A DNA stretch of 21,448 nucleotides from positions 1 through 21,448 of the forward strand of contig CAYFHS010000047.1 in NCBI GenBank assembly GCA_964342815.1. Reading direction: 5' to 3'. The stretch is from an uncultured archaeon (GTDB taxonomy: Archaea; Thermoplasmatota; Penumbrarchaeia; JASLWR01). Made by a program: the position numbers and the translations under genes. The notes beneath the pieces were generated by a model, which searched no databases, was not told the DNA's origin, and was given only the letters and a program-made list of their open reading frames with translations. Positions 3,168-21,448 of this stretch are shown here, one piece after another. How positions within the stretch are numbered: position 1 is the stretch's first letter; every line of letters begins with the position of its first letter.

Positions 3168-3172
3168 TTTTT

Positions 3173-3179: not shown

Positions 3180-3270
3180 TATGAGTTTCCGGCGGGACGA
3201 AGCAGCGACACTTTTGCCGGTGGGATTCGCCCTTTTCACCGTTCACAAATAATGGAAGTACCGAAAACGC

Positions 3271-3291
3271 ATATAAACAGATTGACACAAT
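3271..3291 (-). promoter_or_regulatory. Promoter element: palindrome ATTG-N3-CAAT, 3 nt, then TTTATAT TATA box (copy 1)
   Basis: Minus strand ATTGTGTCAATCTGTTTATAT upstream of VIT-vWA-1; 20/21 identical to 7405-7425. Confidence 0.75.
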
Positions 3292-3439
3292 AACTTCCAC
3301 TTCCCGGGCGGCCAATTTTTTTGTAGAAATCAATCTGGTAAATGGCCAATCAGAGAATTATTAAAATAAAGTGAAAATATTGGATAAGACCAATGACATG
3401 ATCATAATCCATAAGGATGACATGGCATCCATCTTAAAC

Positions 3440-4027
3440 TCAATTTATTCCAAATTCCCTGAATTTTTTGCTGTATTTGGGCTTTTCTTTGATTTTTCTT
3501 ATATAGAATCCATAGGCCAATCCTATTGCCAGGCCAATCAAATGAGCTATATTTGCTGTTCCTGATGGGAAGAAAATACCAAAACTGTCAATTACAATAT
3601 ATAATATCCCGAGCATCCAAAGGGGCATGGGTATTACCATATAGAACAGGATCTTCTTGGTGGGGTATAGTACTATTGCCATGCCGGCGATTCCCATTAT
3701 TGCACCACTGGCACCTAGTGCGGACGAGTAGAAAAAGCTTGCACCTATTCCGGCCAACAATCCTCCTGTTATATATAATATCAAGAAACGCTTCGTGCCT
3801 ATTCTTTCTTCAACCAATGGGCCAAATACAATTAGTGCGATCATATTGAATACTAAGTGTGACAAGCTGCCATGTAGAAACATCGAGGTTATCAGTATCC
3901 ATGGTCTTACGAGTATATCCTCAGACACTAATAGAAATTCTCCTGTAAAACCTTTGGAGAATTCTTGTACAAGAAATGCGATAACATTGATGACAACCAA
4001 CGTTAGAGTAGCTTTTTTAATATTCAT
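3440..4027 (-). CDS. Rhomboid-family intramembrane serine protease (S54), 195 aa
   Basis: TSMFLHGSLSHLVFNM motif, EERIG, catalytic GASG serine and ANIAHLIG histidine, about 6 hydrophobic segments. The catalytic dyad is intact. Confidence 0.97.
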   Translation of the reverse strand: MNIKKATLTLVVINVIAFLVQEFSKGFTGEFLLVSEDILVRPWILITSMFLHGSLSHLVFNMIALIVFGPLVEERIGTKRFLILYITGGLLAGIGASFFYSSALGASGAIMGIAGMAIVLYPTKKILFYMVIPMPLWMLGILYIVIDSFGIFFPSGTANIAHLIGLAIGLAYGFYIRKIKEKPKYSKKFREFGIN

Positions 4028-4092
4028 GATTAGTTTATAAAAGCAATGATTTTAAATCTTTGGGTTTGAGTTTATTATTAAAATGGAATGAA

Positions 4093-7000
4093 TCATGTCA
4101 GCCTATTCCCACCCCATGAATCACCCACAGATGAATCTGTGGGTTTCATCCTCGAAACCGCAGAAATCTGCTTCCCCTTCTCCCCTACCACCAAACGGTG
4201 GCGGTCTCCGAAGGGGATTCCTGCGGACTGATCGTCATCAAGATGCCATGTCGGCGCCCGGCCCATCTTCTCGACCTTTAAAACCCCGATATCAGACAGA
4301 TCGTTCATGTGATGCTGCACGGCCCTGCGGGTCTTTCCAAGTTTTTCGGCGATCTGCTGCGTTGTGGTCCCCGGTTCTTTCTGTATGATATCCACGATCT
4401 CCTTCTGGACCGGTGTCAGAATGTGTCCGGCCTTGCGGGCTCCATACGGAAAATAATAAAGATATTTTCCTTCGCGGTGGGAGCTGATCATATTTGACCG
4501 CTCCAGGGTTTTGAGATGGTGCCGAAGGGTTCCGCTGGACATGTCGAGCTGTCTTTTTATCTCCCGGTAATGCTCCCCCGGGTGACGGTTGATGAATTCC
4601 ACGATGGTCTGTCTCTTCTTGTTGTTCAGAATGTTCTTACTTTTCAATCTCGTGTAATAAAAAATGCACAGTATAAGTAGAAGAAGGCCGAGCACGAAAA
4701 ATAGGGCCACAAGAAAATACCCCGGCTCCTCTTCCTTCCATCGCTTCGGGTCTCTTGGATAAGCATCCTTCTCGTTGGGTACGCCGTCGCCGTCCATGTC
4801 GGGGTCCAGTTTGTCCGGAATACCATCATCGTCGATATCGGAGGGGTATGAAAACGGATCATATGGGTCGGTTCCGCATTCCAGCTCAACGGTGTCGTTC
4901 CAGCCGTCACCGTCCGAATCCTCTTCCGTTTCATTATCATCTCCCGTTCCGTTTCCATTCTCACCATCCGGAGGAGTGCCATTGCCACTACCGTTATTCG
5001 GGATTGACCCGTTTGCATTCAAAACTGTTAAAATTAACTCGGTATCGTCGCGGTTCTCCTCCAGGTCCATAACGGTAAGCGTTATGGCATAAAAACCTGG
5101 AATGTCGAACAGATAGGATTGCTTGCTTCCGTAAAGCTTGACTGTCGTGTTGTTATACTGGAATTCCCATGTATAGTTAACTATACCGACGTTGTCCCAG
5201 CTCCCGGTTGCGTTGAAAAATGCGGTCTCGCCAAGGCTTATATTGAAGTTTGTACCAGAGATCGCCACCGGGGCGGTAATATCGATAACTATCACAGTAA
5301 CGACATCCCGATTCCAGTTGCCTCTTTCGTCCGTGAGATTCAGCGTAAGCACATATACTCCCGGTATATTGAATGAAAAACCTCGGACCATCCCATATAG
5401 GATTTCCTCAGTGCCGTCATAGGTGAAATTCCAGGTGTAATTCGATTCTCCCACAGCAAAACTGGCAGTTCCGTTCAGGAAAATGATCTCACCCTGTTGA
5501 ACGATCATATCGTTTCCCGCTCTGGCGATAGGCAGGTCCGAATCCCTTACCGTGAGAGTTTTTTTAATTACTGCCCAGTTTCCCCGGGCATCGGTGACAT
5601 TCAATGTGATTGTATACGTCCCAGGTATGTCGAAAGTGAAACGCGCCGTGGCCCCATTGAGCATTATTTGCCCGCCATCGTATGTGAAGTTCCAGGTATA
5701 ATTGGTGATCCCTGCGTTATCCTGGCTGCCGCTTCCATCGAAAATAAAGGTCTCGCCCCGGTTGATGACTGACAAGTCACCCGCATCGGGTATCGGCGGC
5801 TCGATATCCAGCACGTATACGGACCTCTCGTCGCTGTCGGTCCGGTTTTCCTCGTCGGTGATCGTCAACTTGATCTCATACGCTCCTACAGTATCGAACA
5901 GGAATGAAACTGTACCGCCGTAGAGAGTTATTTCCTCATCATCATAATTAAAGGACCACGTGTAGTTGATAATCGCAGAGGTCCCCCAAGAGTTCATCCC
6001 GTTGAATTGAAGCGTTTCATGCTGGTCAACGGCGACATCAATTCCCGCATTGGCCACCAGAACCGGATTTCCACCTACCGGAATCCCTGTGAGCGGAAGC
6101 TGGTCTTCTGCATTGGCGGCGCCGTCAATGGCGTAGGGCAGATCCACGATACCGTCGCTGTCATTGTCCGGGCTTACCCATTCCGACCAGTAATTTCCTC
6201 CCGAAGGAATGTTCCAGTTATTACCGGTACCGTCATCGTAGCCTTGCGCCCCTTCGTTGTTTGCGATGAAATCGTTGTGATGGATCGTATTATCCCCGGA
6301 TTCGCCGTCCAAAGAAATGCCGTAATTATTATTTTCAAAGTATGTGTTATTGAATATTTCGTTATCGTCTGAACTGCTGAAGTTCATCCCATATCCCAGG
6401 TTCCTTCCCACATTGTTGTACTTTATTGTACCGCCGTCGGAACTCCAAAGCTCTATACCGCCAAAACCGTTCTCATCGCATGTGTTGTTCTCAATGATAC
6501 TGCCGTAACAGTTCCGGAGAGATATTCCTGCTCTTTGGTTCACTGAGCAGGTATTAAATTCGATGATATTGCCATTGGATGAGATCACGTTGATACCAAA
6601 AGGGTCGTTGGAATCGAATTTATTGTTTCTTACTTCGATATTTGTGGAAAAAGCGATATCAAGGCCCACGTTTGCGTCTGTGATGATCTGATCCTCCACT
6701 TCAACGCCATTACAGCGAGAAAGTATGATCTGGCCTGCATCATCGGGGACCTTCCCCCCGGTCTGGTTCTTCCAGTAATGCACCATCTTCCCGTTCACCG
6801 TGTTAGAGGAATCTATGGTATGAGTGTCCCAGTTACCCAAGTATGTTCCCGATATGAGTATCCCATTCGAGAACATCTTGTTGTTGATGATTATGATGCT
6901 CGTGGTACGGTTCAGGTGCAAGCCCACTGATTTGTTTGTGATGGTATTGTCTTCTATGCTGCAGCTTCCCACGTTATCCACAGCGAGCCCGGCCCCTTCC

Positions 7001-7380
7001 GAATATGAATCGTTAGTGGTAATGTTGAAGCCCTTTACGAGGACACCCGCGGAGCGTATCGTCAGCACATCAGTGGAATCGCCGATGATGTAACAAATAT
7101 CGCTCCCGGCCCCGATAAGCTCTATATCGTTGCTGACCACCGGATTTTCGTAATATATTCCCCCCTCAACCTGGACCGTGTCACCGTCATTTGCCGTGTT
7201 GAGAGCCGCCTGTATACTTCGATGGTCTGCACCCCCAGCTTGATTTACCACTATGGTTTCGGCACGGGTTCCGACGACAGTATCCTGAACGTCCGGGGTG
7301 CTTTGTGAGACAACACCGGATCCCGTGATGAGAACCCATGACAGTAAAAAGACAAGAAAAAATCGGCCTCTCCATCGCAT
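4093..7380 (-). CDS. Membrane-tethered transcription regulator: signal peptide - right-handed beta-helix (NosD/CASH-like) - 4x PKD - TSP3-like Ca-binding repeats - TM - tandem wHTH, 1095 aa
   Basis: Signal MRWRGRFFLVFLLSWVLITGSG; I..N...N beta-helix repeats; four PKD units with NYTW.F.Y...F..PG.Y.I.L..TD; DSDGDG/DIDDDG/DMDGDG motifs; TM YFLVALFFVLGLLLLILCIFYY; wHTH1 HPGEHYREIKRQL...GTLRHHL; wHTH2 QKEIVDIIQKEPGTTTQQIAEKLG...AVQHHM. Confidence 0.93.
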   Translation of the reverse strand: MRWRGRFFLVFLLSWVLITGSGVVSQSTPDVQDTVVGTRAETIVVNQAGGADHRSIQAALNTANDGDTVQVEGGIYYENPVVSNDIELIGAGSDICYIIGDSTDVLTIRSAGVLVKGFNITTNDSYSEGAGLAVDNVGSCSIEDNTITNKSVGLHLNRTTSIIIINNKMFSNGILISGTYLGNWDTHTIDSSNTVNGKMVHYWKNQTGGKVPDDAGQIILSRCNGVEVEDQIITDANVGLDIAFSTNIEVRNNKFDSNDPFGINVISSNGNIIEFNTCSVNQRAGISLRNCYGSIIENNTCDENGFGGIELWSSDGGTIKYNNVGRNLGYGMNFSSSDDNEIFNNTYFENNNYGISLDGESGDNTIHHNDFIANNEGAQGYDDGTGNNWNIPSGGNYWSEWVSPDNDSDGIVDLPYAIDGAANAEDQLPLTGIPVGGNPVLVANAGIDVAVDQHETLQFNGMNSWGTSAIINYTWSFNYDDEEITLYGGTVSFLFDTVGAYEIKLTITDEENRTDSDERSVYVLDIEPPIPDAGDLSVINRGETFIFDGSGSQDNAGITNYTWNFTYDGGQIMLNGATARFTFDIPGTYTITLNVTDARGNWAVIKKTLTVRDSDLPIARAGNDMIVQQGEIIFLNGTASFAVGESNYTWNFTYDGTEEILYGMVRGFSFNIPGVYVLTLNLTDERGNWNRDVVTVIVIDITAPVAISGTNFNISLGETAFFNATGSWDNVGIVNYTWEFQYNNTTVKLYGSKQSYLFDIPGFYAITLTVMDLEENRDDTELILTVLNANGSIPNNGSGNGTPPDGENGNGTGDDNETEEDSDGDGWNDTVELECGTDPYDPFSYPSDIDDDGIPDKLDPDMDGDGVPNEKDAYPRDPKRWKEEEPGYFLVALFFVLGLLLLILCIFYYTRLKSKNILNNKKRQTIVEFINRHPGEHYREIKRQLDMSSGTLRHHLKTLERSNMISSHREGKYLYYFPYGARKAGHILTPVQKEIVDIIQKEPGTTTQQIAEKLGKTRRAVQHHMNDLSDIGVLKVEKMGRAPTWHLDDDQSAGIPFGDRHRLVVGEKGKQISAVSRMKPTDSSVGDSWGGNRLT

Positions 7381-7404
7381 AATTTACAAATACACGATTC
7401 TAAT

Positions 7405-7425
7405 ATATAAACAGATTGGCACAAT
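7405..7425 (-). promoter_or_regulatory. Promoter element: palindrome ATTG-N3-CAAT plus TTTATATA TATA box (copy 2); probable leaderless transcript
   Basis: Minus strand ATTGTGCCAATCTGTTTATAT(A). The TATA box ends about 24 nt before the ATG at 7380, and there is no SD. Confidence 0.75.
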
Positions 7426-7483
7426 GATTACTCTTTTAGCTAAAAATATTTGTTTTACTGGTTTTTTCCACCTTATGTAACAT

Positions 7484-7501
7484 TTCGGTTCATGAACTGA
7501 A
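7484..7501. promoter_or_regulatory. 18-bp near-perfect palindrome in the divergent intergenic region (candidate operator)
   Basis: TTCGGTTCATGAACTGAA, with a perfect core GTTCATGAAC and one mismatched pair, just upstream of an AT-rich TTTAATATA. Confidence 0.35.
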
Positions 7502-7591
7502 CATATTTAATATAAGCGATTTTAATCAATAGTATTTGTACAATGTTATTTCATATATATTGATATCAACCCATGAGTTAAGGTGTGTATT

Positions 7592-10500
7592 ATGAAAAAA
7601 GGATTTGCGCTATTATTCGGATTCTTGATGATCGTAGTTGGTCTGTCACCTATGCTGGCAGCCGGTAATATGGTTCCTCGGGGAATGGCCGAGCATTCGG
7701 TTATGTTTCCACAAATCGAGTACCTCCATGTCAACGTCACTATAAACGATCGTATAGCCCATACCGAGGTGGATCAAGCGTTTAGGAACACTAATGATGA
7801 ACCTTTACACGGAACCTATTTCTTCCCTGTTCCCAATAGGGCGGTCCTGAGCAATTTCTCGGTTCTTGTTGACGGGGTGGTCAAGACTCCCCGGATAGTT
7901 GAGGATGATGAGTCGGATGCGTTCTTGAAGTCCCAAGTTCTCCAGCAAAATGATTCATCGTTTCTTAGATACATGGATGACGATCTTTTCAAGCTTGACA
8001 TCCTGATTCCGTCTAACCAGACCAGGGTAATGCACCTGGAATATGACGAGTTCCTCACCAAAGAAAACAACGCTGTCAAATACCTCTATACCCTTTCCTC
8101 GGCCACCTATTCCATTACTCGGGTCCCACATATCAGACTGACGATCAACATCACTTCCGAGAAGGGCGTGCGTAATGTGTATATCCCGGAATATGATACT
8201 ATTATCACCCGCAACTCCCGGGATAATGTGGTTGTAAGCTGGGAAACCGGCACTCTTTTAAATCCGCTGCAAACCCGCAGCCAGCAGGGCCAAGGTCAAG
8301 GTCAGGGCCAAGGTCAAGGTCAGGGCCAAGGTCAAGGTCAGGGCCAAGGCCAAGGTCAAGGTCAGGGTCAAGGTCAGCAGGGTCAGCAAGGTCAGGGTCA
8401 AGGCCAAGGTCAAATAGTTAGTAATAGACCTCCCAGGATCAAAGACGGTTATATCCAAGCCTCAACCCATTACCAAGAATTCACTCTCTTTTACACCCCG
8501 GTGGATGATGATAAGGGTGGATCGTTTCTCAACTATGATGACGGGGTTGACAGGTTCTTCATGTTCCTCTATTCTCGGGAGGATGAGGACAGGGAATCCG
8601 TGCGGCTTCCCAAAGACGTGGTCTTCATTTTTGATAAATCAGGGTCCATGAGCGGTAGTAAAATCGAGAAAACCCGTGAAGCACTGGTGCAGATGATTGG
8701 GCTTCTCACCCCTGATGACAGATACGATCTGATCGCATTCGACAATACCGTAACCCCTCTGTTCGGTGAACTCGCATCGGCAACTTCGGAACATTTGCAG
8801 ACAGGCCTCGAAACGGCCAGATCCTTGACTGCCAGTGGATCTACGGCCATTAACGACGCCTTAATAAAAGGGTTTTCAGAGATGGCTCCCGGATACCAGG
8901 CCGGCCGTTCTCGATTGATCATGTTTTTAACCGACGGGTTGGCGAACGTGGGTGAATCCTCTGTGGAAGGAATAACTGCCAATGTGGAGAATGCAAATTC
9001 CGAAATAAACGTGCCTATGTTCGTATTCGGCGTCGGCACCGACGTAAACAACCACCTTCTGGGTCAGTTGGCCCAGGAAAACTGGGGCGAGGTGTACTAT
9101 ATAGACCGGTCGGGGATGAACCTGAACGAAATTGTTTTGAGGGTGTTCAATGAAAACGCAAATCCGGTGCTATCCGACGTGACCGTGGAATTTCAAAATA
9201 TTACCACAGAGCAATTGTATCCCAAGAAGATCGGGAATCTGTATGCAGGATCTGAGCTTTTACTGGTAGGGAAATACCGGGGCTCCGGGGAGCTTACCGT
9301 ATTCGTCAACGGAACAGGATACGATGGTACTATCTCGGATGTTTTCAAGTTCCAGGCAGGACCCAATGCGGACCACCCTTACATCCCCCGCCTCTGGGCA
9401 ACGCGGCGGATCGGGGATCTGCTATTCAACATCTCCATAACAGGCGGAGGCAGCCAGGAGCAAATCGACGAGGTGATCGAACTTTCTATGAAATATGGGA
9501 TCGTGACACCGTATACCTACCTTATTATCGAAGAGAATGCGAATGAGCTGACCCAGGACAACGAAGCGTATAATGCTGATTCCAATAACGATGGAATCCC
9601 CGATGGCAATGACGCTCAAGGAGATGGTGGACAGATGGGTCAGGGAAAAGGTCAAGGATACAAAAAAACCACGTCATCCACCACTGCGGCCGGAGGAAAT
9701 GCCAGGACTGTGGGCATTCGCTCTTTTGTAGAAATTTTCAGGGTGATATTCGATCTTCATTTATTCTTCGAGAATAATATTACCCATATAACAATCTACA
9801 ACAACGACACCATCGATGACTGGATACGAACAAACTTAAGCATCGATAAGGTGGTCACCTTCGGATCAGAGGAGTATTTCGATCTGGTCAGTGAGCATGC
9901 CGATATACTGGCCTTGGGAAATCTGATCGTATTCAAAACCGGAAATGAAGTGATTTATGTTACTGAGGGCTCGAGGGGATTCGAGTTAATAGATAAGTGG
10001 TTGGAAGTGGACGGGAGGGATGTGATAGTGTCATACCAGTTCACTAAACCGACCGCCATGACGTTCTACTATTCCAATAATCCGTCCGCCCAGTGGATAC
10101 AATTAGACTCCTCAGGGGTTCAAAAGCATCACACTTTCCGGCTTACGGAGCTCAATGAAGGGACCTATTCCTATTACGCTGTAGCCGTCTATCAGGATAA
10201 CTATACGTCAACCGGTTTCCTCGATATGCCTAGTACATGGACCATCCAGTCGGAGACCCCAATTTACCAAATTACCCTGGGCCCCATTATGTATCAAGAC
10301 GGAGTTCCCGTTTCAGGTATGACTGTCATCATCAACGGGGTAATTGATGCTCGGGGAGTCTTGGACGAGTTGGGTACTCTGAGCTTGAACATACCGTCCG
10401 GGACTTATACTGCAACATTGAAGGATGAGAAGAACGAAAACCTTGCCGAATGGATTTTCACGGTCTCGGAAGCGGGAGAACTGAAAGGTAAGATACCTGT

Positions 10501-10879
10501 TGTCGTCCTCTCCGATGAAAGGCCGGAAGAACCATTGGAGAAGCCCAAGGAAGAAGCACCAGATGTCGAAGAGCCTGAGGAAGAGCCACCAAAAGAACAA
10601 CAGGAAGAAACACTGGGAGAACCGACGGAAGAACCTCTTGATGAATTATCGGAAGAGCCGTTGGAGAAAGCGCTTCCCGAACCGAAGAACTCGCCATCAA
10701 CAATGACCGTGATAAATATAATAAACGCAGTTATGGTTATTTCAGTGATTATCGCATTGGTCTTAATAAAGAAGAAACGAGGAGGGGGGCGACCGAAAAT
10801 ATCCCTAGAAAAAAAAGTTCCTGCACTGGAGTATGGCCGCGAGGAAATTTCCCCCGAAGAGGACAATCCAGTCATATAA
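7592..10879 (+). CDS. Type I membrane VIT + vWA (ITIH-like) surface protein with (QG)n insert, C-terminal beta-sandwich-like region, EEP stalk and TM, about 1095 aa
   Basis: Signal MKKGFALLFGFLMIVVGLSPMLAA after AGGTG at 7581-7585 (start moved from the track GTG at 7583). VIT region (V...INDRIAHTEVDQAFRN...YFFPVP..A), vWA with DKSGS...T...LTDG, RLWATRRI, and TM VINIINAVMVISVIIALVLI followed by KKKR. Confidence 0.92.
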   Translation: MKKGFALLFGFLMIVVGLSPMLAAGNMVPRGMAEHSVMFPQIEYLHVNVTINDRIAHTEVDQAFRNTNDEPLHGTYFFPVPNRAVLSNFSVLVDGVVKTPRIVEDDESDAFLKSQVLQQNDSSFLRYMDDDLFKLDILIPSNQTRVMHLEYDEFLTKENNAVKYLYTLSSATYSITRVPHIRLTINITSEKGVRNVYIPEYDTIITRNSRDNVVVSWETGTLLNPLQTRSQQGQGQGQGQGQGQGQGQGQGQGQGQGQGQGQQGQQGQGQGQGQIVSNRPPRIKDGYIQASTHYQEFTLFYTPVDDDKGGSFLNYDDGVDRFFMFLYSREDEDRESVRLPKDVVFIFDKSGSMSGSKIEKTREALVQMIGLLTPDDRYDLIAFDNTVTPLFGELASATSEHLQTGLETARSLTASGSTAINDALIKGFSEMAPGYQAGRSRLIMFLTDGLANVGESSVEGITANVENANSEINVPMFVFGVGTDVNNHLLGQLAQENWGEVYYIDRSGMNLNEIVLRVFNENANPVLSDVTVEFQNITTEQLYPKKIGNLYAGSELLLVGKYRGSGELTVFVNGTGYDGTISDVFKFQAGPNADHPYIPRLWATRRIGDLLFNISITGGGSQEQIDEVIELSMKYGIVTPYTYLIIEENANELTQDNEAYNADSNNDGIPDGNDAQGDGGQMGQGKGQGYKKTTSSTTAAGGNARTVGIRSFVEIFRVIFDLHLFFENNITHITIYNNDTIDDWIRTNLSIDKVVTFGSEEYFDLVSEHADILALGNLIVFKTGNEVIYVTEGSRGFELIDKWLEVDGRDVIVSYQFTKPTAMTFYYSNNPSAQWIQLDSSGVQKHHTFRLTELNEGTYSYYAVAVYQDNYTSTGFLDMPSTWTIQSETPIYQITLGPIMYQDGVPVSGMTVIINGVIDARGVLDELGTLSLNIPSGTYTATLKDEKNENLAEWIFTVSEAGELKGKIPVVVLSDERPEEPLEKPKEEAPDVEEPEEEPPKEQQEETLGEPTEEPLDELSEEPLEKALPEPKNSPSTMTVINIINAVMVISVIIALVLIKKKRGGGRPKISLEKKVPALEYGREEISPEEDNPVI
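8282..8413 (+). repeat. In-frame hexamer tandem repeat CARGGY encoding 44 aa of Q/G
   Basis: The 18-mer CAGGGCCAAGGTCAAGGT occurs perfectly three times (8285-8338) with a fourth one-mismatch copy, then more degenerate CAR-GGY units. Confidence 0.97.
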
Positions 10880-10933
10880 ATCCTATAGACCGAACTCCCA
10901 ATGTAAAGATATGACTCTTCTTACCTAAGGTAT

Positions 10934-10953
10934 TGGGACGGATCGGCGTCCCA
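10934..10953. terminator. GC-rich hairpin between convergent genes (possible terminator or 3' stabiliser)
   Basis: TGGGACG-gatcgg-CGTCCCA, a 7-bp stem 2 nt past the protease stop codon. No U-tract, and archaeal terminators need not use hairpins. Confidence 0.3.
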
Positions 10954-10955
10954 TC

Positions 10956-13900
10956 TCAATCTTCGTCGAGAAGGTCCTCATCGGAAATATTGATCTCTTC
11001 CGTTTCAACCGTTTTCTCATCCTCGTCACTGCCATCCTCGGACCGGATTTCGGCCCCCGTACTTTCCTCAATATAATCCTCCGTTTCACTCTTTGCATCA
11101 ACCTCTACGTCGACATCCATTTCCTCAGTTATCTCTTCCCAGACTTCCGACTCAACGACATCCCAATCAAATACCTCGGTGTCCCCCGTCTCCATGTCTT
11201 TTTTCATGTCATCCTCAACCACCCCATTTTCTCCAGTACTACAGCTGCCGCATATCTCGCCGTCCCCCTCCACGCCCTCTCCGCAGTCGGGGCAGGTATA
11301 GCCCGGTGCGTCTATCACCCACGTATCCTCGAAATCCTCCGTATACCGGTCCCAGCACTCCATATCTTCCTCTACCACAACCGGTTCCTCGTTCTTTGTG
11401 GAATCACTCTCGGCCGCACTTGATTCTTCCTCCTTTATCACCCGGGATGGTATGTCTTTCGTCTTGTCTCCATCCCCTGCTTCTTCGACCCTTTCCGCAT
11501 TCTTTTTTCGCCGCTTGAACACAATGAGTAAAGAAACAACTATTATAAAGACAAAAAGAATCGCGAAAATGATCATCCCGCCGAGAGAGGTGGAAAATGC
11601 CGCCCAATCTTTATCGAACCAGTCACCGTCATCGTCCCGGGGACCGGTGACGTCGTCATCACCCGGGCCCGTATCATCGTCATCTCCAGGTGTCACGTCG
11701 TCGTCATCCTCGATATCCGGCACATCCTCCCCCTTTAACGAAATAATCAGGCTGTCGCTGCCATTGTTTCCCGCCGCATCGAAGACAGTGAGATATATGG
11801 TATAATTTCCTGATTTTGCGAATCGGAATTCAGTGATCGGCCCGTATATCGTCCGCAACTTTCCATCATACTCAAAGCTCCAGGTGTAGTTTATCACACC
11901 AATGTTGTCCCGGCTTGCGGATCCATTGAAACTCACCAACGTGCCATTATCCACGGTCATATCCGCTCCCGCATTTGAAACGGGTGCATCATCGTCCTTC
12001 ACCTGACGGACGATGCTGCCGTCCTCGGGGTAATTTATCGCGTTTCCGGCAGAATCCCATAACAGAAAGGTATATTCCAGAATTAGGGCGTCCGCCGGAA
12101 TATCCACTAAGTGATACCAGATATCGGCTGCACCCCGTACCATGGCAGCAACGGAAGAAGTTCCGTCGATCACATAACTTACATTCATCCCGACTATACC
12201 GATATTGTCGGTGGCCCTTAAAGTAATATTGAAAGGGTTGCCGGTGCAAGGGATGTTCGACCCGGGCTCTCCCCCCACTACGGGTAAATCATCATCGATA
12301 AGCTTCATATTTTCAGGCATGGTCTCATTCCAGTTACCGGAAATGTCGCAGGCTGCAAAACGGTAGGAAAAATTTCCATGATCGGGAGCGGTAAAGCGTA
12401 TTCCCCACTGGTCTCCGCTGCGGTTGGAAACCGATAGATTTAGGATATTTTCACCGTATTCCAGTATCAGGCGGACCTCCTCGATTCCCAGATTGTCGGT
12501 GGTCACGACGGAAAGGGTCAGCAGGTCACCCGTGGTTGATGATGAGGGGAACGTTACTTCGCCAAAAACGGGCGGGTCGTCATCGGTCACATTGATCGTA
12601 CGGCGTAGCGTGGAATTCCAGTTCCCGGCGATATCCGACACATAGAAGGCATAATGAAGTTCTGTGGCATTTGTGGGGATCGTTATGTTCCCGCTCCACG
12701 TTCCCCTGCTTATTTCCAGGGTAACATTTTTTTCCAGTCCGGGACCGAAATCGTATCGTGCAATTGCGGCATTTGCATCATCGGCCACCAAACGAAGATT
12801 GAAAATATCCCCGGTAGTGGGTGTGCCCATGGGCGCTTCAGTAATTTCAGGCATCAATAGGTCAATAGTGAAATTCAGTTTATCATCGGCCGTATTTCCT
12901 GCCAGATCGCGGGCTCTTACCACTATACTGTGTTCTCCTGGAGTCAGGTTCGTAAGGACATACGACAGGTTAGCCCCAACATCGAATTCTGTCGAGCCGT
13001 CAAGAAATAATTCATACTCATGAATGCCGCTAAGATTGTCAGAGCCCTGCCAGGTCACGTTTATTTCGGTACTGTTCAGAAAACTGTTTCTCTCAGGAGC
13101 GGTGATGTTCACCACAGGTGCAGTCAGATCCACGTGAAATGATAAATTTGTTGAATTCAAATTTCCGGCCAGATCGCTGAGCTGCACCCATACTGTATGC
13201 GGCCCCTCGGCCAGGCCTTCGAATGTATGACCGGTGCTTGAGCCTGCATCCTGCCATTCTCCGTCGTCGAGACTGTACGAATAATTATTCACCCCACTGG
13301 TTTCATCCGTACCGGTCCAGTTCATCGTCACATTGGTGGAATTATGGAATGAGCCAGCCCCGGGGCTGGTGATGCCGAGCATAGGAGGCGTATTATCGAT
13401 GATCAGGTCCGTTTCATAGATGTATTCGTAGGTCCCCCGTATGGCTTTCCATTGAATCGTATGGGGGCCGTCCGCGTAAATTGATGTATTCAGCACATAA
13501 TACCAGTAATCGGTTCCGTTCACGCCCTGCCAAGTCCCGCCATCCATCTTCATTTCAATGTCGGTGATTATGTCCGAGGCGGTACCGGTGATATTCACGG
13601 TCCCTCTTTTCAATTCAGCCGATGAAGTGGAATTGACGCTAAGATGACCAACTAAACCCTTTATGCAGAAGTTGGCGGTGGGATTCAATCCGGTTAGATC
13701 GCGCCATTGTGTCCCATTACGATAAAAGCTCTCCCCCGGGCTTGCTTCAGAAGTTACCAATGTCATTGGCCTCGGCCCGTCCAGCAGTACCGGAACGTCG
13801 GATGTCCGATCGAATGGATGGCCGCCCCGGGAGAGGTTCACAAGAATATAGAAAAAATCGCCCTTTGTGAGCTGAACCGGGTTCGGGAGGTCTATGGTGC

Positions 13901-15059
13901 GGAATCCCCGGTAATCGATATGGCCGCTTTTGGAAGTGAGCTCGTCCTTTAAAGTCCCGTTATGAAATTTATCGAAGATCTTCACCGTGTAGTTGACGTT
14001 GTCGGCAGCGGTATAGAAGCTAACGGCTCTCAGCTCTTCATTGTCAGTGGCGTTAAATGCGTTGAATGCCTCCGAGGCGTTGGCGAGAGTGTCCCGCCAC
14101 CCGTGATAATCATGATAGTAATAGCGGCTGTAAGGTTCGAGAGTAACGTTCTGGTACGAGACAGTTCCCATCTCAATGTTTCTCGTGGAGTGTTTATCAT
14201 AGTACGATATCCAGAAATAGCCGTTGTATGTTCCCCAGTTTCCCCAGCTGTTACGGCAGAGCCATGCCCCCGGTTGCGGGGCTTGCGTGGTCTTGTTGTC
14301 GTCCCATCCGATAATGGAAACGGCGTGGTTCGGATCGTTCCCATTGGCCGGCGGCTGGTAATGGATATAGTTGGACATCAGGCTGCCGGAGTAGTACATG
14401 CAGGTTCCCACTATCCCCTCGGTCATGATCTTTTTCTTGATGGTATCGATGCCGTTGAGCTGATCATCCATGGTGAACCACTCGATCTCCTGGGGATAAT
14501 AGTAGCGGTATGACGGATCGGTTCGGGGGGCCGCACTTGTAATCCCGCTGTAGGGCGAATCGGATTCCCTTATCGCGCCTTCGCCCCGAGTGAGGTATGA
14601 GGAAGTTACCAGATAGTCTCCGCCCTGGTGGACGGTGAGACCGCCTCCGGACGGAGGGATTCGATCATCGTTGTTATGATCGTTGAACCCGTTCCACCAG
14701 TCCAGGTGTGCCTCCGAGAGGTTCGGCTCTCCCGCTTCTCCGGCCCCGGTCCAGTTTCCGGTCATATAGAGATTGCCTTCCATGGATGCGTAGGCGCCGA
14801 AGGTCCAACAGGTCCCGTATGGCCCCTGGTTCCTGATGGATGGAACAAAGTTCTGGCCTCCGTAATCACGCAGGTCGAAGGTCAATGGCAGGGAAGTTGC
14901 ACTGCTGCGCATTGATTGGGATGGAACCGTTGAAATGGATTGGCCATGCCCGGAAGATGTGTGAGCTATGCGAGAAGTGACGGTCGGCAGGGGGAAAGAG
15001 ACAACACAGAGCAGGACGACGGTCATTAGAATCAGAATACATTTCGCAGCAGACCTCAT
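10956..15059 (-). CDS. Cell-surface papain-family (C1A) cysteine protease with lectin-like, Ig-like and PKD domains, TM and acidic cytoplasmic tail with a Zn ribbon, 1367 aa
   Basis: LPLTFDLR start of the mature domain; [12 protein letters not shown] (oxyanion Q, catalytic C); [12 protein letters not shown] (H); CRNSWG (N). Followed by the lectin-like region typical of archaeal C1 proteases, D..PP-delimited Ig repeats, one [26 protein letters not shown] plus KRRKK, and CPDC-x10-CGSC. GGTGA SD upstream. Confidence 0.95.
11622..11709 (-). repeat. About 24-bp degenerate coding repeat, [24 protein letters not shown], in the juxtamembrane linker
   Basis: Read directly from the translation just before the TM of the C1A protease. 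Confidence 0.75.
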
Positions 15060-15137
15060 TTCGCATTCACCGGATGTTTTTCATGCCCTGGATTGGAGAT
15101 AAGGGTTTCGGTACAATTTCTATTGAAGAATATTGCT

Positions 15138-18100
15138 CTATAATATATTGTCAATGGGAATCAGCACCGGAATCGACTCGTCATCCAGCTCGGATTCAAC
15201 CTTGACCTCGTCATCGGTATCAGTTGGGGATTCCAACCCCGCCAACGGTCCTGGAATTTCGATCTTAGCCTCGGGCAGGCCAGCGAAGATTCTTTCGATG
15301 TCCTCGCTGCGGTGCACCGGGATATCCATCCTGCCTTCGGGGCCATTGGATTCATCATCGTCATCCAAAAGCTCGTGGTCACTCATATTCTCGGTATCGT
15401 TCATGGTATGATCTGCTACGGCCGAGCCGACCGGTACATGCACCGCCTCCGCTTCGCCGTCCCCGGAGGGAACCCGGCTCGGAGTGTCGACCTCATCTTG
15501 CTCCGTCCCCACTTCGCTATCGCCCGGGGACCTCGTGTTCGGGGGCTCGATAGAACCGGGCTGCACCGGGACGGTTGGGGTTGTAAATGGTACTTCCGGG
15601 AAAACGAGTGGCGCCAGAGATGGGGGTGCCGGTGCTTTGAGCAGCTCGGGAGCCGCCGACGGCGGCGCTGGAGGTGCAGTTCGTATCGAAGGACCTGCAG
15701 GGGGAACCGTATCGGTGCGGACGGCACCAACAAGCTCAGAATTATTTTTCATCTTTTTGCGCTTTATCTGGAGTGTGACAACGACAAATAGGGCAATCAG
15801 AGCAAGTATTATGGTGACAACTATGATTACCGTAAGAAGCGTATCCGACGCAGCTTTTTCTCCAGTTTCTCCAACAGCGGATGGTTTCCCCCCGTTCCCA
15901 TTGGCCTTCACTACATTTACTGTGATCGTCAGTTCTTCAATATGTACTGAAGCATGCGATGCCGTTACCGTCACCGTGTATTTGCCGAACATGACATTGC
16001 TTGAGATGTCCAGCACCAACTCCAATTCTTTCATGTCCCCCGGCCCCAGCTCCACGCCGTCATCCATTGAAAGACCCGCAAGTCCTCCGTCGTAAAGAAC
16101 GATCTTGATGGACTTGTTAACGCTTCCATTGTTGCTGATTGTTATCTTCTCAGTATGTTTTTGCCCTGGATATAACACGATCATGGAAGGACCTGTCAGA
16201 ATAATATCCCCATTGTCCTGCCCACCATTCCCAGCCAGTTTCACAGTGAAGCTCCACACCCCACTTGCGCATATGCCCTCGAATAGATCGCGGCGGGGAA
16301 TTATCGTCCAGTAATATGTTTCGCCATCAGAAAGACCCATCACTGTATAATTGAAACCGGCCTGACGTTCAGTTAAGAGCTTCATATCGTCCTGTGACGT
16401 TCCCAAAAGAACGTCGTATTCCAGCAATGAAGGATTGTAGAAATCTGTCACCCAGGTGAGATTCACCGCATCCGTTTCCACCACGGTTCCGTCTTCGGGA
16501 CTAAGCAGACTGCTTTCCGGAAAATCCTCCAAAACAGGTTCCTCAACAGTTAGAAGAATGGTCGTATTTGCCGTGCGGCCGGCAAGGTCGGTTACCGAAA
16601 ACATTATACGATGAACGCCCACTTCCAGCTCCGGGACGGATAAATTCTCTCCGTATCCCAGCAATCCTGAAACGTTTGAATGCCAGGTGCAGTTCAGCAT
16701 ATCTCCGTGCAGCTCATCCGGGTCCGATCCTCGGCCCGTAAATGATATTATATCACCCAGGAAAAACACACTTTCGTTAGTAGGTGACAGGATCGCGGCA
16801 CTGTCCGGTGGGTCGTTGACATTCAGAACAGTAAGCGTGAACACTCGCCGGTCCTGTTCTCCGCTGTCGTCGGAGACGTTGATGCTGACATTGTACGTGC
16901 CGACATCCCCGTTATCCGGAGTTCCATATAGAGTGTTATTATCGGCACCCCATTGCAGCCAGCTTGCATTCGTCAGAAGAAACCAGTGGAGTTCATCGTC
17001 CGGATCAATATCCGTGGCATTGTAGACGACCGAATACAGATCGTCCTGCTTCACCTCCGTTAGATCCGTGGTATTGATGACGGGAGGATCGTTTATATTG
17101 GTAACTTCAAGAACAAAGTGCGAGTTTGCCGTACCCCCATTGCCGTCGTGTACCGTCACGTCCACCCACCACAGCCCCACGTCGTTGTTGCCCGGAGTTC
17201 CGTTTAGCAGCCCCGTGCGCTCGTTCATGGACAGGAATGCCGCGTTGGTATCCATGCTCCAGCGTATATTTCCCTGTCCGTCGTCGGTTGAATTATAATT
17301 ATTGTGATAGTAAAAATCCTCTTTTACCGTTACGATATCCGGTGTAAGCAGAACGGGGTCCGTATTCTCCACCGTCAGGGTATAATTGCGCTCAGTATAA
17401 CCCCCTTGACCGTCGGATACGTTGATCCGCACCCAGTAATTTCCAACATGCGAATTGTCCGGTCTTCCATACACCGTGTGATTATCGGCCCCCCAGTGGA
17501 GCCATGATGCGTTCGTACCGAATTCCCATTCCAATTCATCCCGGTTGGGGTCTGTAGCCGTGTATTCATTGTTATAGTACTCGTCCTCGAGGATACTGGT
17601 AATGTCCGGAGTATCGATAACAGGCGCATCGTTGTCTCTCTTGGATCTGAGCCAAGGCCGGAAGGTAACGTGGTCAGTTACGTTATCTCCGGTACCCTGC
17701 GGATTGCCCGTGGTGTGATGAGGACCGGAACGGTTTCCCCACCAGTTGTTCCTCCCGTCCACCTGAAGCGCATTCACATTGTAGACGAAAACACCCCACA
17801 TATCATTTCCGTAAATATCGTTGTAATGAACGTCCGTACCCGCACTCGCCCCATACAGCATTATACCGTTGGAATTGTTCGATACGGTGTTGTTATCGAT
17901 GCCGTTGTCATCCGCACCCGAGAGCTTTATTCCGACCCAATCGTTGGCCGTTATCTTATTTTCGTACACTCGGTTAGAATTCGAATTTTCTATGTATATA
18001 CCGCCGTTCCACCCGCCATTTCCGCTTATGTTATTGTTATGAATAGTGTTCGACACGGCTGCCCACAGGGTTATGCCCTCGTCGTTTCCCGTGATGTTGC

Positions 18101-18587
18101 ACTGGGATATATCACAATTCTGGGAGACTGAGAGCTTGATGGCAGAGTGTGACTGGGGCGCGTTGCGAACGGTAAGAAGTTTGATGACCACCGAGTTGGC
18201 CGTTACGTATATTCCGGTTCCGGTACCTCCCGCATCGATTATCGTCCCATTCACGCTCTCCCCCTGGAGCGTAATTCCTTTGGATACCGTTACGTGCTCG
18301 GTGTAGATCCCGTTGTGAATAAAAACGGTGTCTCCGTGATTGGCGGCGTCCACACCTTGCGAAATCTTTTGAAACTGCTGGCCGCCTCCCGCGTCCACGT
18401 GTATGACCGCGCGGCTGCCGTTCGGGTTAATGTTATTTGCTTTCATTGGCTGCCGGAAGGGCTCCGGCGATGTATAAGAGACCGTGTTTTCATTCGTAAT
18501 CGAAATGCTGCAGGTGAAAAGAATCAAATTTATCAGTATCAGGGCCGATAGCAGAGCATTTCCATGATCACGCATGCAATTTCCCAT
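15138..18587 (-). CDS. Type I surface protein: beta-helix (NosD-like) - 3x cadherin-like/He_PIG Ig - further Ig/FN3-like domains - TM - Pro-rich/acidic tail, about 1149 aa
   Basis: Hydrophobic signal ALLSALILINLILFTCSISI; beta-helix ending in NNWWG; three N.PP.I....ED..Y...Y..TD...W...TNA..L....YG.P.N..VG units; TM LLTVIIVVTIILALIALFVVVTL plus QIKRKK. Alternative start at 18575. Confidence 0.9.
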   Translation of the reverse strand: MGNCMRDHGNALLSALILINLILFTCSISITNENTVSYTSPEPFRQPMKANNINPNGSRAVIHVDAGGGQQFQKISQGVDAANHGDTVFIHNGIYTEHVTVSKGITLQGESVNGTIIDAGGTGTGIYVTANSVVIKLLTVRNAPQSHSAIKLSVSQNCDISQCNITGNDEGITLWAAVSNTIHNNNISGNGGWNGGIYIENSNSNRVYENKITANDWVGIKLSGADDNGIDNNTVSNNSNGIMLYGASAGTDVHYNDIYGNDMWGVFVYNVNALQVDGRNNWWGNRSGPHHTTGNPQGTGDNVTDHVTFRPWLRSKRDNDAPVIDTPDITSILEDEYYNNEYTATDPNRDELEWEFGTNASWLHWGADNHTVYGRPDNSHVGNYWVRINVSDGQGGYTERNYTLTVENTDPVLLTPDIVTVKEDFYYHNNYNSTDDGQGNIRWSMDTNAAFLSMNERTGLLNGTPGNNDVGLWWVDVTVHDGNGGTANSHFVLEVTNINDPPVINTTDLTEVKQDDLYSVVYNATDIDPDDELHWFLLTNASWLQWGADNNTLYGTPDNGDVGTYNVSINVSDDSGEQDRRVFTLTVLNVNDPPDSAAILSPTNESVFFLGDIISFTGRGSDPDELHGDMLNCTWHSNVSGLLGYGENLSVPELEVGVHRIMFSVTDLAGRTANTTILLTVEEPVLEDFPESSLLSPEDGTVVETDAVNLTWVTDFYNPSLLEYDVLLGTSQDDMKLLTERQAGFNYTVMGLSDGETYYWTIIPRRDLFEGICASGVWSFTVKLAGNGGQDNGDIILTGPSMIVLYPGQKHTEKITISNNGSVNKSIKIVLYDGGLAGLSMDDGVELGPGDMKELELVLDISSNVMFGKYTVTVTASHASVHIEELTITVNVVKANGNGGKPSAVGETGEKAASDTLLTVIIVVTIILALIALFVVVTLQIKRKKMKNNSELVGAVRTDTVPPAGPSIRTAPPAPPSAAPELLKAPAPPSLAPLVFPEVPFTTPTVPVQPGSIEPPNTRSPGDSEVGTEQDEVDTPSRVPSGDGEAEAVHVPVGSAVADHTMNDTENMSDHELLDDDDESNGPEGRMDIPVHRSEDIERIFAGLPEAKIEIPGPLAGLESPTDTDDEVKVESELDDESIPVLIPIDNIL

Positions 18588-19163
18588 GCAATACCACTGG
18601 AGAAAGTAATAAGATATCGTCCTATTAATATTATCGGTTCAGGAAGGGGAGAATGCATCGTTCTATTGAAGAGGAGAAGATAGTCGATACCCTGAAGTTC
18701 GAGGCGAATGAATATCACTCAGCTGATCACGATGAGGGGGGACGGCGGAGGTGTTTTTCTCGATGGGAGGGATGGTGAGATCTCCATCCGCAGGAATCCC
18801 CTTCGGGTTCCTGGTTTGCTGTCTCCTCGGCAGGTATGCCTACGGACAAAGGCCGACCCAAGCTCCCTATTTTTACTTTGAAAACCAGAATGTTCTACGA
18901 AATTCTTACTTCAAACCCAATAACAGGGAGAAAGTAGGAGACACAAGTAGCTTAAGTAAAATTACTAATAAACTAAGAACAGCCCTTATATTCGATAAGA
19001 ATATTCCAATGCTACAAAATGGCCCTGGGGGTATCTAACCGCCAAGATCTCTTGGCCGGCTACAATGTTCCATCCTATTTCGTTCGGAACGCAGTGACCC
19101 CATTTCTATTATGGGCCGGGCCACCATTATAATTCTATATGTTGTTCCAGTCCCGGGGTTCTA

Positions 19164-20297
19164 ATGATGGGCGATGGCGATTTGCGAATACGCACGATGC
19201 GGCGGATGGAGATTGAAAAGGTGAGACGGCTCTTGAAGGGCATGTCGTTCCCAGACAAGATATTCTTCCCTGCGGAGTTCAAATCGAATCTGAAGCAGAT
19301 ACGGAAAGGGAAGGGTACGTGCCTAGTCGCTGTATTGGATGGAAAGATAGTCGGCATGATCGCGCTAAATTTTTCTATAATTCAGGGGAAGCGGCACGGT
19401 CTCATTGACATCGTCGCCACTGATAAGGACGCACGGAGCAAGGGCGTCGGCAAGTCACTATTGACAGCGGGTATGGCTTGGTACAAGCGGAAGGGATGCC
19501 GCGATGTTTATGCGTTTGTCAACAGGTACAACTCGCCGTCGTGGAACATGCTCACGCACTTCGGGTTCTTCGAATACAGCCTGTCCAGCCAGGTCAAGGA
19601 CCACGGGATTGCATCGCTCAAGCTCTGGCCCTTCATGTCGTACATCTTCGGCATCGGCGTCTTCAAGATGAAGAAGGAGTTCCCCGGCCAAAAGAAGCGC
19701 AAGACGAATTCGACTAGGCAGTTCATCACCGCTTGGTTCATCACGTCGCTCATCTGGATGCTGGTCGCTTTTCGGAAAGGATTCTCCGCTGGCCTCTTCC
19801 CATATGTCTTGCTCATCGCCGGCTTGAGCATGCTGGCTACCGAGCTCGCGCATGTAGCCATGGCACGAAGACACGGCCTTCGGATGGTCTTCAGAGCGTG
19901 GTATCCTGGCCTATTACTAAGCATCCTCATCGTGTCAATCGAAGGGATGTGGCTTGCCTATGGCTCGGTATACATTCGGCAGACTGACTGGAATTACGTC
20001 AAGGACACCAAGACGAATGGTGCCATATACGTGATGGGGCCGATAGCTAACATCATGATGATTCTCGCGTGCGCCATGCTCATCCCGTTCGCAGGCAGCC
20101 AGCAGTACGTAGACATGCTGACGCTGGGTTATGAAATGAACATACTCATGACTATCCTTAACTTGTTGCCTATAGCTGGCCCAGGTGGATTTGCGTGGGA
20201 TGGGATGAAAATATTCCGGTGGAATAAGCTCATTTGGCTCGCGATAGTCGTCGCTCTTGCGGCGATAATCGTGACACGTCGCATCGGCGCCTTCTAG
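19164..20297 (+). CDS. GNAT acetyltransferase fused to a site-2-protease (M50)-like membrane domain with a non-canonical TELAH motif, 377 aa
   Basis: GNAT motif A IVATDKDARSKGVGKSLL and N.PSWNML.HFGF. The C-terminal half has several TMs, LATELAH, MGPIAN and NLLPIAGPGGFAWDG (M50 NxxPxxxxDG-type motif). Confidence 0.85.
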   Translation: MMGDGDLRIRTMRRMEIEKVRRLLKGMSFPDKIFFPAEFKSNLKQIRKGKGTCLVAVLDGKIVGMIALNFSIIQGKRHGLIDIVATDKDARSKGVGKSLLTAGMAWYKRKGCRDVYAFVNRYNSPSWNMLTHFGFFEYSLSSQVKDHGIASLKLWPFMSYIFGIGVFKMKKEFPGQKKRKTNSTRQFITAWFITSLIWMLVAFRKGFSAGLFPYVLLIAGLSMLATELAHVAMARRHGLRMVFRAWYPGLLLSILIVSIEGMWLAYGSVYIRQTDWNYVKDTKTNGAIYVMGPIANIMMILACAMLIPFAGSQQYVDMLTLGYEMNILMTILNLLPIAGPGGFAWDGMKIFRWNKLIWLAIVVALAAIIVTRRIGAF

Positions 20298-20445
20298 AAT
20301 ATTTATCGCAATCGTGATAGGGATTTCCACCTGGGTTCACTATGTAATCGAGACAATGGGCCGAAAGATAACAAATATAATCCTGATCCGCGGTTCCGGA
20401 GGGAGACCTGTGGTTTTAATAAGGGAATGCTAATTCGCAATTATT

Positions 20446-20543
20446 TCGCATAATGCCTTGCAAGTTGGCGAAGTTCCGAGCAAAGCGAGGAATTTGGGTG
20501 GAGGGCGTCAAGCCCGAGAGCCGCTAATTTGCTAGTTATGCGA
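20446..20543. mobile_element. attC-like integron cassette recombination site (98 bp)
   Basis: Terminal 8-bp IR TCGCATAA...TTATGCGA containing GCATAAT and GTTATGC cores; inner arms GCAAGTTGGCG/CGCTAATTTGC; internal hairpins AAGTTCC/GGAATTT and GGGC/GCCC. Confidence 0.6.
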
Positions 20544-20691
20544 CGCCGTTAGGTCCGAGCATCGGAGGGGGGCAGTAGTCCCCCGAGAAGCGCAAGCTTT
20601 TCGGAATCACTATTAAGATAGAAACTCTTTTATCAAACAAAATTTTAATGTAAAAAAAAATCTTCGTTAAACAAGGGAGATGTTTGCATCC

Positions 20692-21360
20692 AAACCAACA
20701 TGAATTGAATAAATTATTACTAATCAAGATTCATCAATCTTTTAAACATTTTCTTAGTAGGGTTATTATCTTTTCAGATTGATTTAAAGGTATTCTACAG
20801 TAGCTTTTTCCTACTAGTGGCTTTTTTAATACAATTATGTGTTTACTCCATCTTGCATTTATCTTTTTTCGTTTATAATTTAAAATTTTTTTTCTGAGAT
20901 AACTTAATTCTTTGTTATTTACGAATAGGGGATCCACGATTATTTTATCGATTTTTTCAAAAGGATAATATTTAAATCCCAATTCCCACCCCTTATAACC
21001 AATACCTAATTTCCAAAAATGTGTTGTTTTAAAACCATTCTCAAATATTCGAAATATATCGCCCATAAATACAATAGATACTAGAAAGAAAAAAACTGAA
21101 ATTAAGAAAAAAATTCCTGTAAAAGATATAATCCATGGGCCTCCTAATAAAGTTATAGCAAAACAGAATAGTGCAATAAATCCACAAAAGATACCTAAAA
21201 AGCGATACATAGTAACACTATGTTTATCAGATACTAAAGAATAATTATCATATAGTAATTTACCTTTTTTCCTTATAGATGAAGTAGTACTCATTATTAC
21301 ACCAAGGGTCCTTCGCTAAACGTTGGGTTTCTTTTATTTAAATTCAATTCATGTTAGTTT
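20692..21360. repeat. 19-bp inverted repeat pair (18/19) bracketing the AT-rich gene
   Basis: 20692-20710 AAACCAACATGAATTGAAT; 21342-21360 ATTCAATTCATGTTAGTTT (reverse complement AAACTAACATGAATTGAAT). Confidence 0.8.
20734..21294 (-). CDS. Hypothetical membrane protein (2 TM plus basic cytoplasmic domain), 186 aa, AT-rich; probable cassette cargo
   Basis: Two adjacent hydrophobic helices (FLGIFCGFIALFCFAITLL; IISFTGIFFLISVFFFLVSIVF) and a Lys-rich C-terminal domain. The frame stays open over 561 nt at roughly 27-30% GC, which is unlikely by chance. Confidence 0.8.
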   Translation of the reverse strand: MSTTSSIRKKGKLLYDNYSLVSDKHSVTMYRFLGIFCGFIALFCFAITLLGGPWIISFTGIFFLISVFFFLVSIVFMGDIFRIFENGFKTTHFWKLGIGYKGWELGFKYYPFEKIDKIIVDPLFVNNKELSYLRKKILNYKRKKINARWSKHIIVLKKPLVGKSYCRIPLNQSEKIITLLRKCLKD

Positions 21361-21396
21361 TAATAAAATTTTTTGCTAAATATCAGTGATTTCGAA

Positions 21397-21448
21397 ATTT
21401 CGCATAAGTCCCCTATTTACGAATATAGAGTTCGGAAAAGGGGAGTTA
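21397..21448. mobile_element. Second attC-like hairpin, truncated by the window edge
   Basis: Begins with the same 11-mer ATTTCGCATAA as 20443-20453, then folds TAA-g-TCCCCT..TT..CGAA / TTCG..AA..AGGGGA-g-TTA up to the last base. Confidence 0.5.

Follow-up and report, generated by a model that had tools for sequence, protein, structure and literature searches.

The window analysed here is the whole of contig C47 (21,448 nt), which comes from a 4.35-Mb genome assembly of 116 contigs that is 89% complete. The host is a marine Thermoplasmatota archaeon; the SSU rRNA on contig C9 scores 1512.9 bits as archaeal, in agreement with the initial annotation, which had read the genome as archaeal-type from the letters of the window alone. 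We refer to this genome as G000, to that of its sister species as G001 and to other genomes of the class as G002, G003, G008, G010, G011 and G014.

Most of the contig is occupied by five very large ORFs at 765-18587 (824, 1095, 1098, 1367 and 1149 aa), the last of which contains NosD/beta-helix and He_PIG Ig domains and is probably a surface protein. Nucleotides 1-40 recur within contig C22 (30481, minus strand), so the left end of the contig abuts a repeat, as the right end does. Synteny with the sister species stops at 18701, and the left edge of an accessory region lies at 18702-18716, where the flanking-box motif AGGCGAATGA starts at 18702. In the sister genome, GGGCGAT is found 6 nt past the same synteny break; just beyond the break (locus L026 on G001 contig C108, ~3343-3369) there is a mini-hairpin, CGCATAATG-AAA-CATTATGC, which may be the remnant of a site. 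The far side of the locus in G001 matches contigs C66 and C59 of G000, which probably follow C47 on this comparison. A 25-nt stretch of the window (18783-18807) is also present on a different 26.5-kb contig of run X1, which carries a short site of the kind described below.

The accessory region contains, on the plus strand at 19164-20297, a gene whose 377-aa product joins a GNAT acetyltransferase to a membrane domain (GC 0.53; PF00583, E 3.4e-15). No orthologue of the fusion was found in the 36 other genomes of the class, and the same locus in the sister species is without it. It is an accessory gene that may be older cargo of the system described here, and it is plausible that it is a cassette. 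We considered 18786-18915 as a decayed site for the GNAT segment and rejected it, its model match being too weak (8.5 bits, E 0.83). Past 20600 the GC content drops from ~0.5 to 0.27, and the ORF list gives a gene on the minus strand at 20734-21294, encoding 186 aa with a hydrophobic middle stretch (GC 0.26). This ORF has no Pfam or NCBIfam match, and a search for its relatives among 5.8 billion clustered proteins found only itself.

Two hairpin sites at the end of the window

The AT-rich gene lies between two hairpin sites. The initial annotation had recorded two imperfect hairpins, 954 nt apart, which share an 11-mer and enclose one very AT-rich gene, with a GNAT fusion just to the left. All of these observations hold: the 11-mer ATTTCGCATAA is present as exact copies at 20443-20453 and 21397-21407, a spacing of 954 nt. 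By itself the 11-mer pair is weak evidence, as at least two matches with at most one mismatch occurred in 10 of 100 shuffles of the 21-kb window; as members of the family described below, both sites are far beyond chance.

Site 1 (20431-20560, ~130 nt, plus strand) is an attC-like site of a class that we call long, defined by covariance model, alignment, covariation and DNA fold. Against the long-site covariance model it scores 113.1 bits (E 4.7e-24) on the plus strand versus 3.8 bits on the minus strand, and the plus strand is also the better-folding (bottom) strand, at -19.7 versus -14.9 kcal/mol. Its outer boxes are TCGCATAAT at 20446-20454 and a closing box at 20535-20543; its other parts are an inner stem and two hairpins, an internal one of the form GGGC..GCCC and a small, weak one at 20544-20555. 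At 20562-20598 (plus strand) there follows a conserved G-run hairpin module, GGGGGG..CCCCC and then GAGAAGCGC, which trails many long sites (for example those at C11 28268, C69 2706 and C68 2515; fold z-score -1.98) and is the 3' tail of the cassette when this is read on the minus strand. A degenerate copy of the flanking box, GCTAATTCGCAAT, was recognized at 20420-20442 by comparison with flanks elsewhere by eye; at other sites the flanking box after the cutting box has the consensus ATCGCCC or ATTCGCC.

Site 2 (21392-21448, minus strand), identified by nhmmer and DNA fold, belongs to a second class of short, near-palindromic hairpin sites (~50 nt) and is cut by the contig end. The short-site profile gives 43.4 bits (E 4.8e-11) on the minus strand versus 19.7 bits on the plus strand; the plus strand folds at -12.8 kcal/mol (z -5.0), the other at -8.1. 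Read on the minus strand, its cutting box is CTTATGCGAAAT (21408-21397). Since site 2 matches much better on the minus strand and site 1 on the plus strand, the two sites are inverted relative to each other; site 2 starts with the same 11-mer as site 1 because its ends are palindromic. The earlier reading needs correction here: the hairpins differ in size class and face in opposite directions. We infer that site 2 holds the head (attI-like) position of a one-cassette island. As for the closing GTTA(TGCG) claimed for both hairpins, site 1 closes on GTTATGCGA, and at site 2 the GTTA can be read but nothing further, because contig C47 stops at 21448 within the second hairpin. Complete short sites elsewhere in the genome continue after the GTTA-type end with TGCGA (3/4) or TACGT (1/4). 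No overlap with the 21448 end was found among the other contigs of the genome. A 13.4-kb Logan contig of run X1 runs 318 nt past 21448; scans of metagenome contigs by exact pattern and by protein gave no match.

A family of sites across the genome

The 11-mer occurs in 15 exact copies genome-wide, mostly where conserved elements begin. The covariance model matches 20 long sites (120-160 nt), and the profile search gives about eight short sites (~50 nt), which are near-perfect hairpins. At least 11 long sites are arrayed over contigs C14 and C69, the ends of which overlap by 55 nt, and islands of one to three genes, each with a long site at one end and a short site at the opposite end, are found on C1, C2, C4, C7, C42 and C68/C45 and in the window. 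The segments between sites show no mutual similarity, have a GC content of 0.26-0.40 and contain mostly orphan genes. That they are copies of one mobile element was rejected, since the sites alone match; a tRNA-anchored element or a known RNA was also rejected, tRNA scans and an Rfam search at E up to 1 both being without a match.

The ORFs run opposite to the folding strand in ~15 of 20 cassettes (author's count from ORF listings); about a quarter of the cargo ORFs are reversed, and two short sites are flipped. The two window sites are ~830 nt apart, within the CALIN spacing rule (at least two attC within 4 kb) if they count as attC-type sites. The absence of an integrase gene from the window had been pointed out before, and neither the ORF list nor the five window ORFs given to family searches include a recombinase; the genome has four tyrosine-recombinase matches, all on contigs other than C47.

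Two further repeats were observed. The first is a dispersed repeat of ~100-250 nt, unrelated to the hairpin sites, which may be a MITE-like element; it is present in L026 (G001 contig C108, 6446-6904) and on contigs C1, C13, C14, C19, C20, C36 and C66 of G000. The second is a module of ~200 nt common to the tails of several otherwise unrelated cassettes, where it stands just before the tail hairpins (in G000, C7 144501-144673, C69 171-368 and C14 105460-105649; also L028 2766-2967). On C7 this module falls within an 89-aa ORF.

Fold and covariation of the long sites

We aligned 21 long sites from G000 and the sister species G001. In the proposed fold, an asymmetric loop (5 nt versus 2 nt) separates the outer stem from the inner stem; further parts are a CGAAsTTCC stem, an internal hairpin and, at the 3' side, a small hairpin. 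In these 21 sites 88.5% of the cells pair and 16 pairs have changed on both sides; none of 500 shuffles was as good, and slid controls pair in 24-44%. Pairs of the G.T type are frequent, and are confined to the aligned strand, which is the plus strand of the window. The long sites have the form by which attC sites are defined, namely an imperfect hairpin with paired outer and inner boxes and AAC/GTT cores, the exceptions to AAC/GTT being the two window sites and one partial site on C2, the right box of which starts with T. The folding strand is the bottom strand in integron terms, so the window cassette reads from right to left. Its minus-strand ORF is thus correctly oriented, and the cargo direction that had been listed as a deviation from the integron pattern is none.

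Strand-specific structure, many G.U-type pairs and good covariation would also be found if the long site were a structured RNA, such as a small RNA, a terminator or a UTR element, with a merely intergenic placement. We regard this as highly improbable: the Rfam search (E up to 1) found no family, most neighbouring ORFs lie on the strand opposite to the one that folds (author's count), and such an RNA leaves the junction complementarity and the turnover of cargo at the box, both described below, unexplained.

The inner stems keep their pairing and not their sequence, and the 5-nt spacer next to the cut differs among the long sites. Varying spacers at this position argue against a double-strand exchange and for a one-strand exchange on a folded strand. 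They bear directly on another alternative, in which the sites are dif-like double-stranded Xer sites that bound 'dif modules', as on Acinetobacter plasmids, and recombine without folding. The initial annotation had noted that the 11-mer resembles a XerC-type arm, and the 11-nt box indeed matches the dif arm of P. abyssi at 7 of 11 positions (PMC2958812). The short sites contain arm-6 bp-arm units, for example ..ATA-GGGGAG-TTATGCGAAAT, and the candidate enzyme described below is XerA-like. In the long sites, however, the boxes are 80-110 nt apart, the variable spacer leaves no common central region for double-strand exchange, the inner stems conserve pairing and not sequence, and the two strands fold unequally well; recombination of plain duplex sites is thus an improbable account of the family. 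The pdif modules of Acinetobacter plasmids are discrete sets of accessory genes bounded by Xer-type sites that alternate in orientation, as here, but pdif sites are plain 28-bp duplexes, without the hairpin body or the covarying stems of the present sites.

Junctions between sites and turnover of cargo

The junctions were tested with 9-nt outer boxes, the right box of site n-1 being compared with the left box of site n. Of 25 junctions, 14 have neighbouring boxes that are exact reverse complements, where permutation gives a mean of 4.6 (P<1e-5); in the large array alone the figure is 9 of 10 (P 3e-4). Within a site, an exact match between the two boxes is seen in only 5 of 33 cases, whereas the inner stems do complement each other. 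The window junction is complementary at 8 of 9 positions. As the boxes complement those of the neighbours and the inner stems belong to their own site, the crossover would, on this comparative evidence, lie between outer box and inner stem, as is characteristic of cassettes that excise and integrate in circular form. We rejected the loop of the small hairpin that follows the site as the place of crossover, because the two arms of this hairpin stay complementary within a site.

Comparison with the sister species gives one mapped boundary and several cases of turnover. A cassette encoding proteins of 99 and 113 aa is found behind a short site on C42 of G000 and behind a long site on C70 of G001, with 90% homology over 970 nt that starts at GTTAT(G/A)CGAAAT. 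The orthologous loci on C11 and on C74 of G001 hold different cargo. One homology break falls before the tail hairpins and not at the box. One island of G001, short site and all, has no counterpart in G000, where the orthologous locus is empty and site-free, so islands also move or are lost as blocks. The attC-like sites and the cassette array of the initial annotation are therefore borne out by a structured, covarying family that separates unrelated cargo, by circular-cassette junction logic and by a boundary at G|TTAT.

An extra module of 770 nt was seen at 2665-3430 on C68 of G000; it encodes a 218-aa ORF (GC 0.28) and has its own pair of tail hairpins, without the body of a long site. The corresponding island in G001 lacks it, and the junction there looks like a hybrid of both hairpin pairs, which suggests that breakpoints of a second kind exist.

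One long and one short end on most islands, together with an island that is absent from an orthologous, site-free locus, is what a non-autonomous transposable element would show if the two kinds of site were its ends, the genes were passengers and its transposase had not been identified. Tandem arrays in which 11 or more long sites follow one another with no short site among them, the complementarity at the junctions of neighbouring sites and the exchange of a single cassette between a short-site and a long-site context all speak against this reading, and an unsystematic look noticed no target-site duplications; we judge a transposable element to be quite unlikely. The sites resemble REP/BIME and MITE sequences in being dispersed, palindromic, intergenic and assembly-breaking. 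Unlike the present sites, copies of those elements neither enclose unrelated cargo in arrays nor have ends that are complementary to the adjacent copy.

Candidate recombinase

The best of the four tyrosine-recombinase matches in the genome is a protein of 391 aa encoded at 140389-141564 on C7. It barely passes the NCBIfam archaeal XerA equivalog NF040815 (222.4 bits, cut-off 220), a model which is itself named 'site-specific tyrosine recombinase/integron integrase', and it stays below the IntI model TIGR02249 (203.5 bits versus a cut-off of 265). It is about equally like XerA of P. abyssi (139 bits) and IntI4 of V. cholerae (130 bits). The protein is without ~40 residues of the IntI insert (relative to VchIntIA 170-241) and keeps an IntI-like G-x-x-SPL tail. 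Its residues 1-95 (L001 1222-1506) form an N-terminal extension with no Pfam match, and this extension of ~95 residues is conserved in the full-length homologues of G001, G003, G002, G010 and G008.

Recombinase and sites are linked in two ways. The first is co-occurrence: homologues are present in 17 of 37 genomes of the class, and long sites in 10 of these 17 versus 2 of the 20 genomes without a homologue (Fisher 0.004, with relatives that are not independent). The second is position. A gene of the C7 type lies within ~2 kb of long sites in G000, G010, G014 and G011, and in G000 and G001 a core of the same arm-spacer-arm form as in the short sites (..ATA-GGGGAG- and the same right arm) follows the recombinase stop codon by 70-110 nt. 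Looser variants stand in the same place in G003 (TTATCTGAAAT), G010 (GGAG-TTAGGCGAAAT) and G002 (a short hairpin closing on GTTAT). A core thus follows the recombinase stop in five genomes. It might be an attI-type primary site, but its place is the gene's 3' end, and the enzyme is not IntI. Homology between G000 and G001 stops right past this core. The contig ends at most ~310 nt from the recombinase stop in G001, G002, G003 and G008, as a repeat would cause, and runs on in G000 and G010. A scan of contigs with the C7 recombinase gave one close relative and one distant bacterial match only, whereas the genome search gave more. A candidate for the Xer/IntI-family recombinase proposed earlier, together with further hairpins elsewhere in the genome, has in this way been found, the sole linked recombinase being XerA/IntI-like and without the IntI insert.

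It might nevertheless be argued that these are ordinary integron attC sites (CALIN), that a canonical IntI is unassembled or foreign and that the Xer-like gene is incidental. The sites have AAC/GTT cores and hairpin form, and the genome is 89% complete; published archaeal arrays are mostly integrase-less, including those of Thermoplasmatota with 0 IntI, and the bacterial IntI1 recombined a Thermoplasmatota attC (PMC9668308). Against this, no IntI over the cut-off was found in the 37 genomes of the class, although 12 of them carry a long site, and in four genomes no more than ~2 kb separates the insert-less recombinase from sites, its stop codon being followed by a conserved site. We therefore consider an ordinary integron unlikely, though less so than the other alternatives. 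The C7 recombinase itself could instead be a housekeeping dimer resolvase, because the IntI insert is missing and the XerA equivalog is passed.

Lost base in the window cassette

In a set of 29 well-formed left boxes the final C is present in 27, and the sole exceptions are the two window sites, in which the cutting boxes end in AAT (20452-54, site 1) and AAG (21406-08, site 2). The initial annotation took these cores to be a variant site; with only two exceptions among 29 boxes they are not a variant consensus, and they look like inactivating changes. The mobile unit would be a 954-nt cassette on the minus strand at 20454-21407, which extends from the TT of the site 2 box to the first base of the site 1 box, and the boxes that have lost the base are exactly the two that excision of this cassette would cut. 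Contigs of three other samples have the same sequence here: that of X3 spans the junction of GNAT gene, site 1 and cassette, and that of X5 covers both sites. No alternative joint at the window cassette was seen in the contigs of these three samples. With both cutting boxes altered at an otherwise invariant base, the cassette is probably fixed in place and no longer mobile. A cassette can, on this reading, become fixed by the loss of both crossover bases, and the present one offers a natural negative control for excision assays.

Proposed mechanism

We propose that the window ends in an island that holds a single cassette of an integron-like system, in which a Xer-type enzyme acts by exchange of a folded strand, and we assign this reading a probability of about 0.65. 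On the minus strand the layout would be site 2 as the head, followed by the 954-nt cassette with its orphan gene and small-hairpin tail, and then by the cassette's own long site, site 1. A tyrosine recombinase would bind the Xer-arm-like outer box of 11 nt, which becomes duplexed once one strand (here the plus strand) folds. It would cut at the inner edge of the box, at ..ATAA|C, which is G|TTAT on the opposite strand; Xer enzymes cut at the inner edge of the arm box. A single-strand exchange as in attC recombination would follow, by which cassettes are inserted behind the head site and can be excised as circles. The enzyme is likely to be the XerA/IntI-like recombinase encoded on C7, without the IntI insert and acting in trans. 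Reversed cargo ORFs, flipped short sites, breakpoints away from the box, islands that move or disappear as blocks, the incomplete site 2 and an enzyme that lacks the insert all speak against the proposal.

The evidence for recombination is wholly comparative. At this level the site family, its fold and covariation, the junction logic, one boundary, the turnover of cargo and the linkage of sites and recombinase are established, and from them we infer single-strand folding in vivo, the exact cut position and the acting enzyme.

Relation to known systems

Archaeal attC arrays are known and are mostly integrase-less, with 6 IntI for 539 sites (Ghaly 2022; PMC9668308). As in integrons and CALINs (PMC9668308), imperfect AAC...GTT hairpins separate single-gene, often orphan cassettes, and the outer half of each site is that of the neighbouring cassette. 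As in those systems, too, sites are more alike within a lineage, one strand folds better while the ORFs are mostly on the other, and most arrays are without a nearby integrase. Nevertheless, there are clear differences from integrons. The linked recombinase is without the IntI-specific insert and stays under the IntI cut-off. The long sites have a branched interior, two extra conserved hairpins, a flanking box and conserved 11-nt boxes. Furthermore, a class of short sites heads most islands, many small islands are spread over the chromosome, and about a quarter of the ORFs are reversed.

The system also shares features with archaeal XerA/dif (P. abyssi XerA, PDB 4a8e; Cortez et al. 2010; PMC2958812), which gives the recombinase its best match among solved structures as well as NCBIfam families. 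The box of 11 nt follows the ATT....ATAA pattern seen in dif arms, and the place of crossover would be the inner edge of the box. It differs from XerA/dif in that a chromosome has one dif, a 28-bp duplex of two 11-bp arms around a 6-bp spacer that serves dimer resolution, whereas here there are dozens of sites with boxes 30-110 nt apart, mobile cargo and a recombinase with a 95-aa N-terminal extension. What is new is thus a variant of the published archaeal attC arrays, of which the window is a terminal and apparently immobilized member.

Recombination of single-stranded, folded sites is thought to depend on the insert gained by IntI, and this insert (the I2 helix, near patch III) is considered necessary for attC recombination (PMC7790495). 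Our literature search found no paper that ties an insert-less enzyme to cassette arrays. Tentatively, and at somewhat below even odds, the present system may represent a second archaeal lineage of integron-type gene capture, with a XerA-like enzyme without the I2 insert, a dif-like duplex head site and folded long sites, to which many of the published integrase-less archaeal 'CALINs' could belong. If an insert-less Xer-type enzyme does run cassette arrays, the ability to recombine folded sites would be older than the insert or would have arisen more than once, and this would explain why archaeal attC arrays rarely come with IntI.
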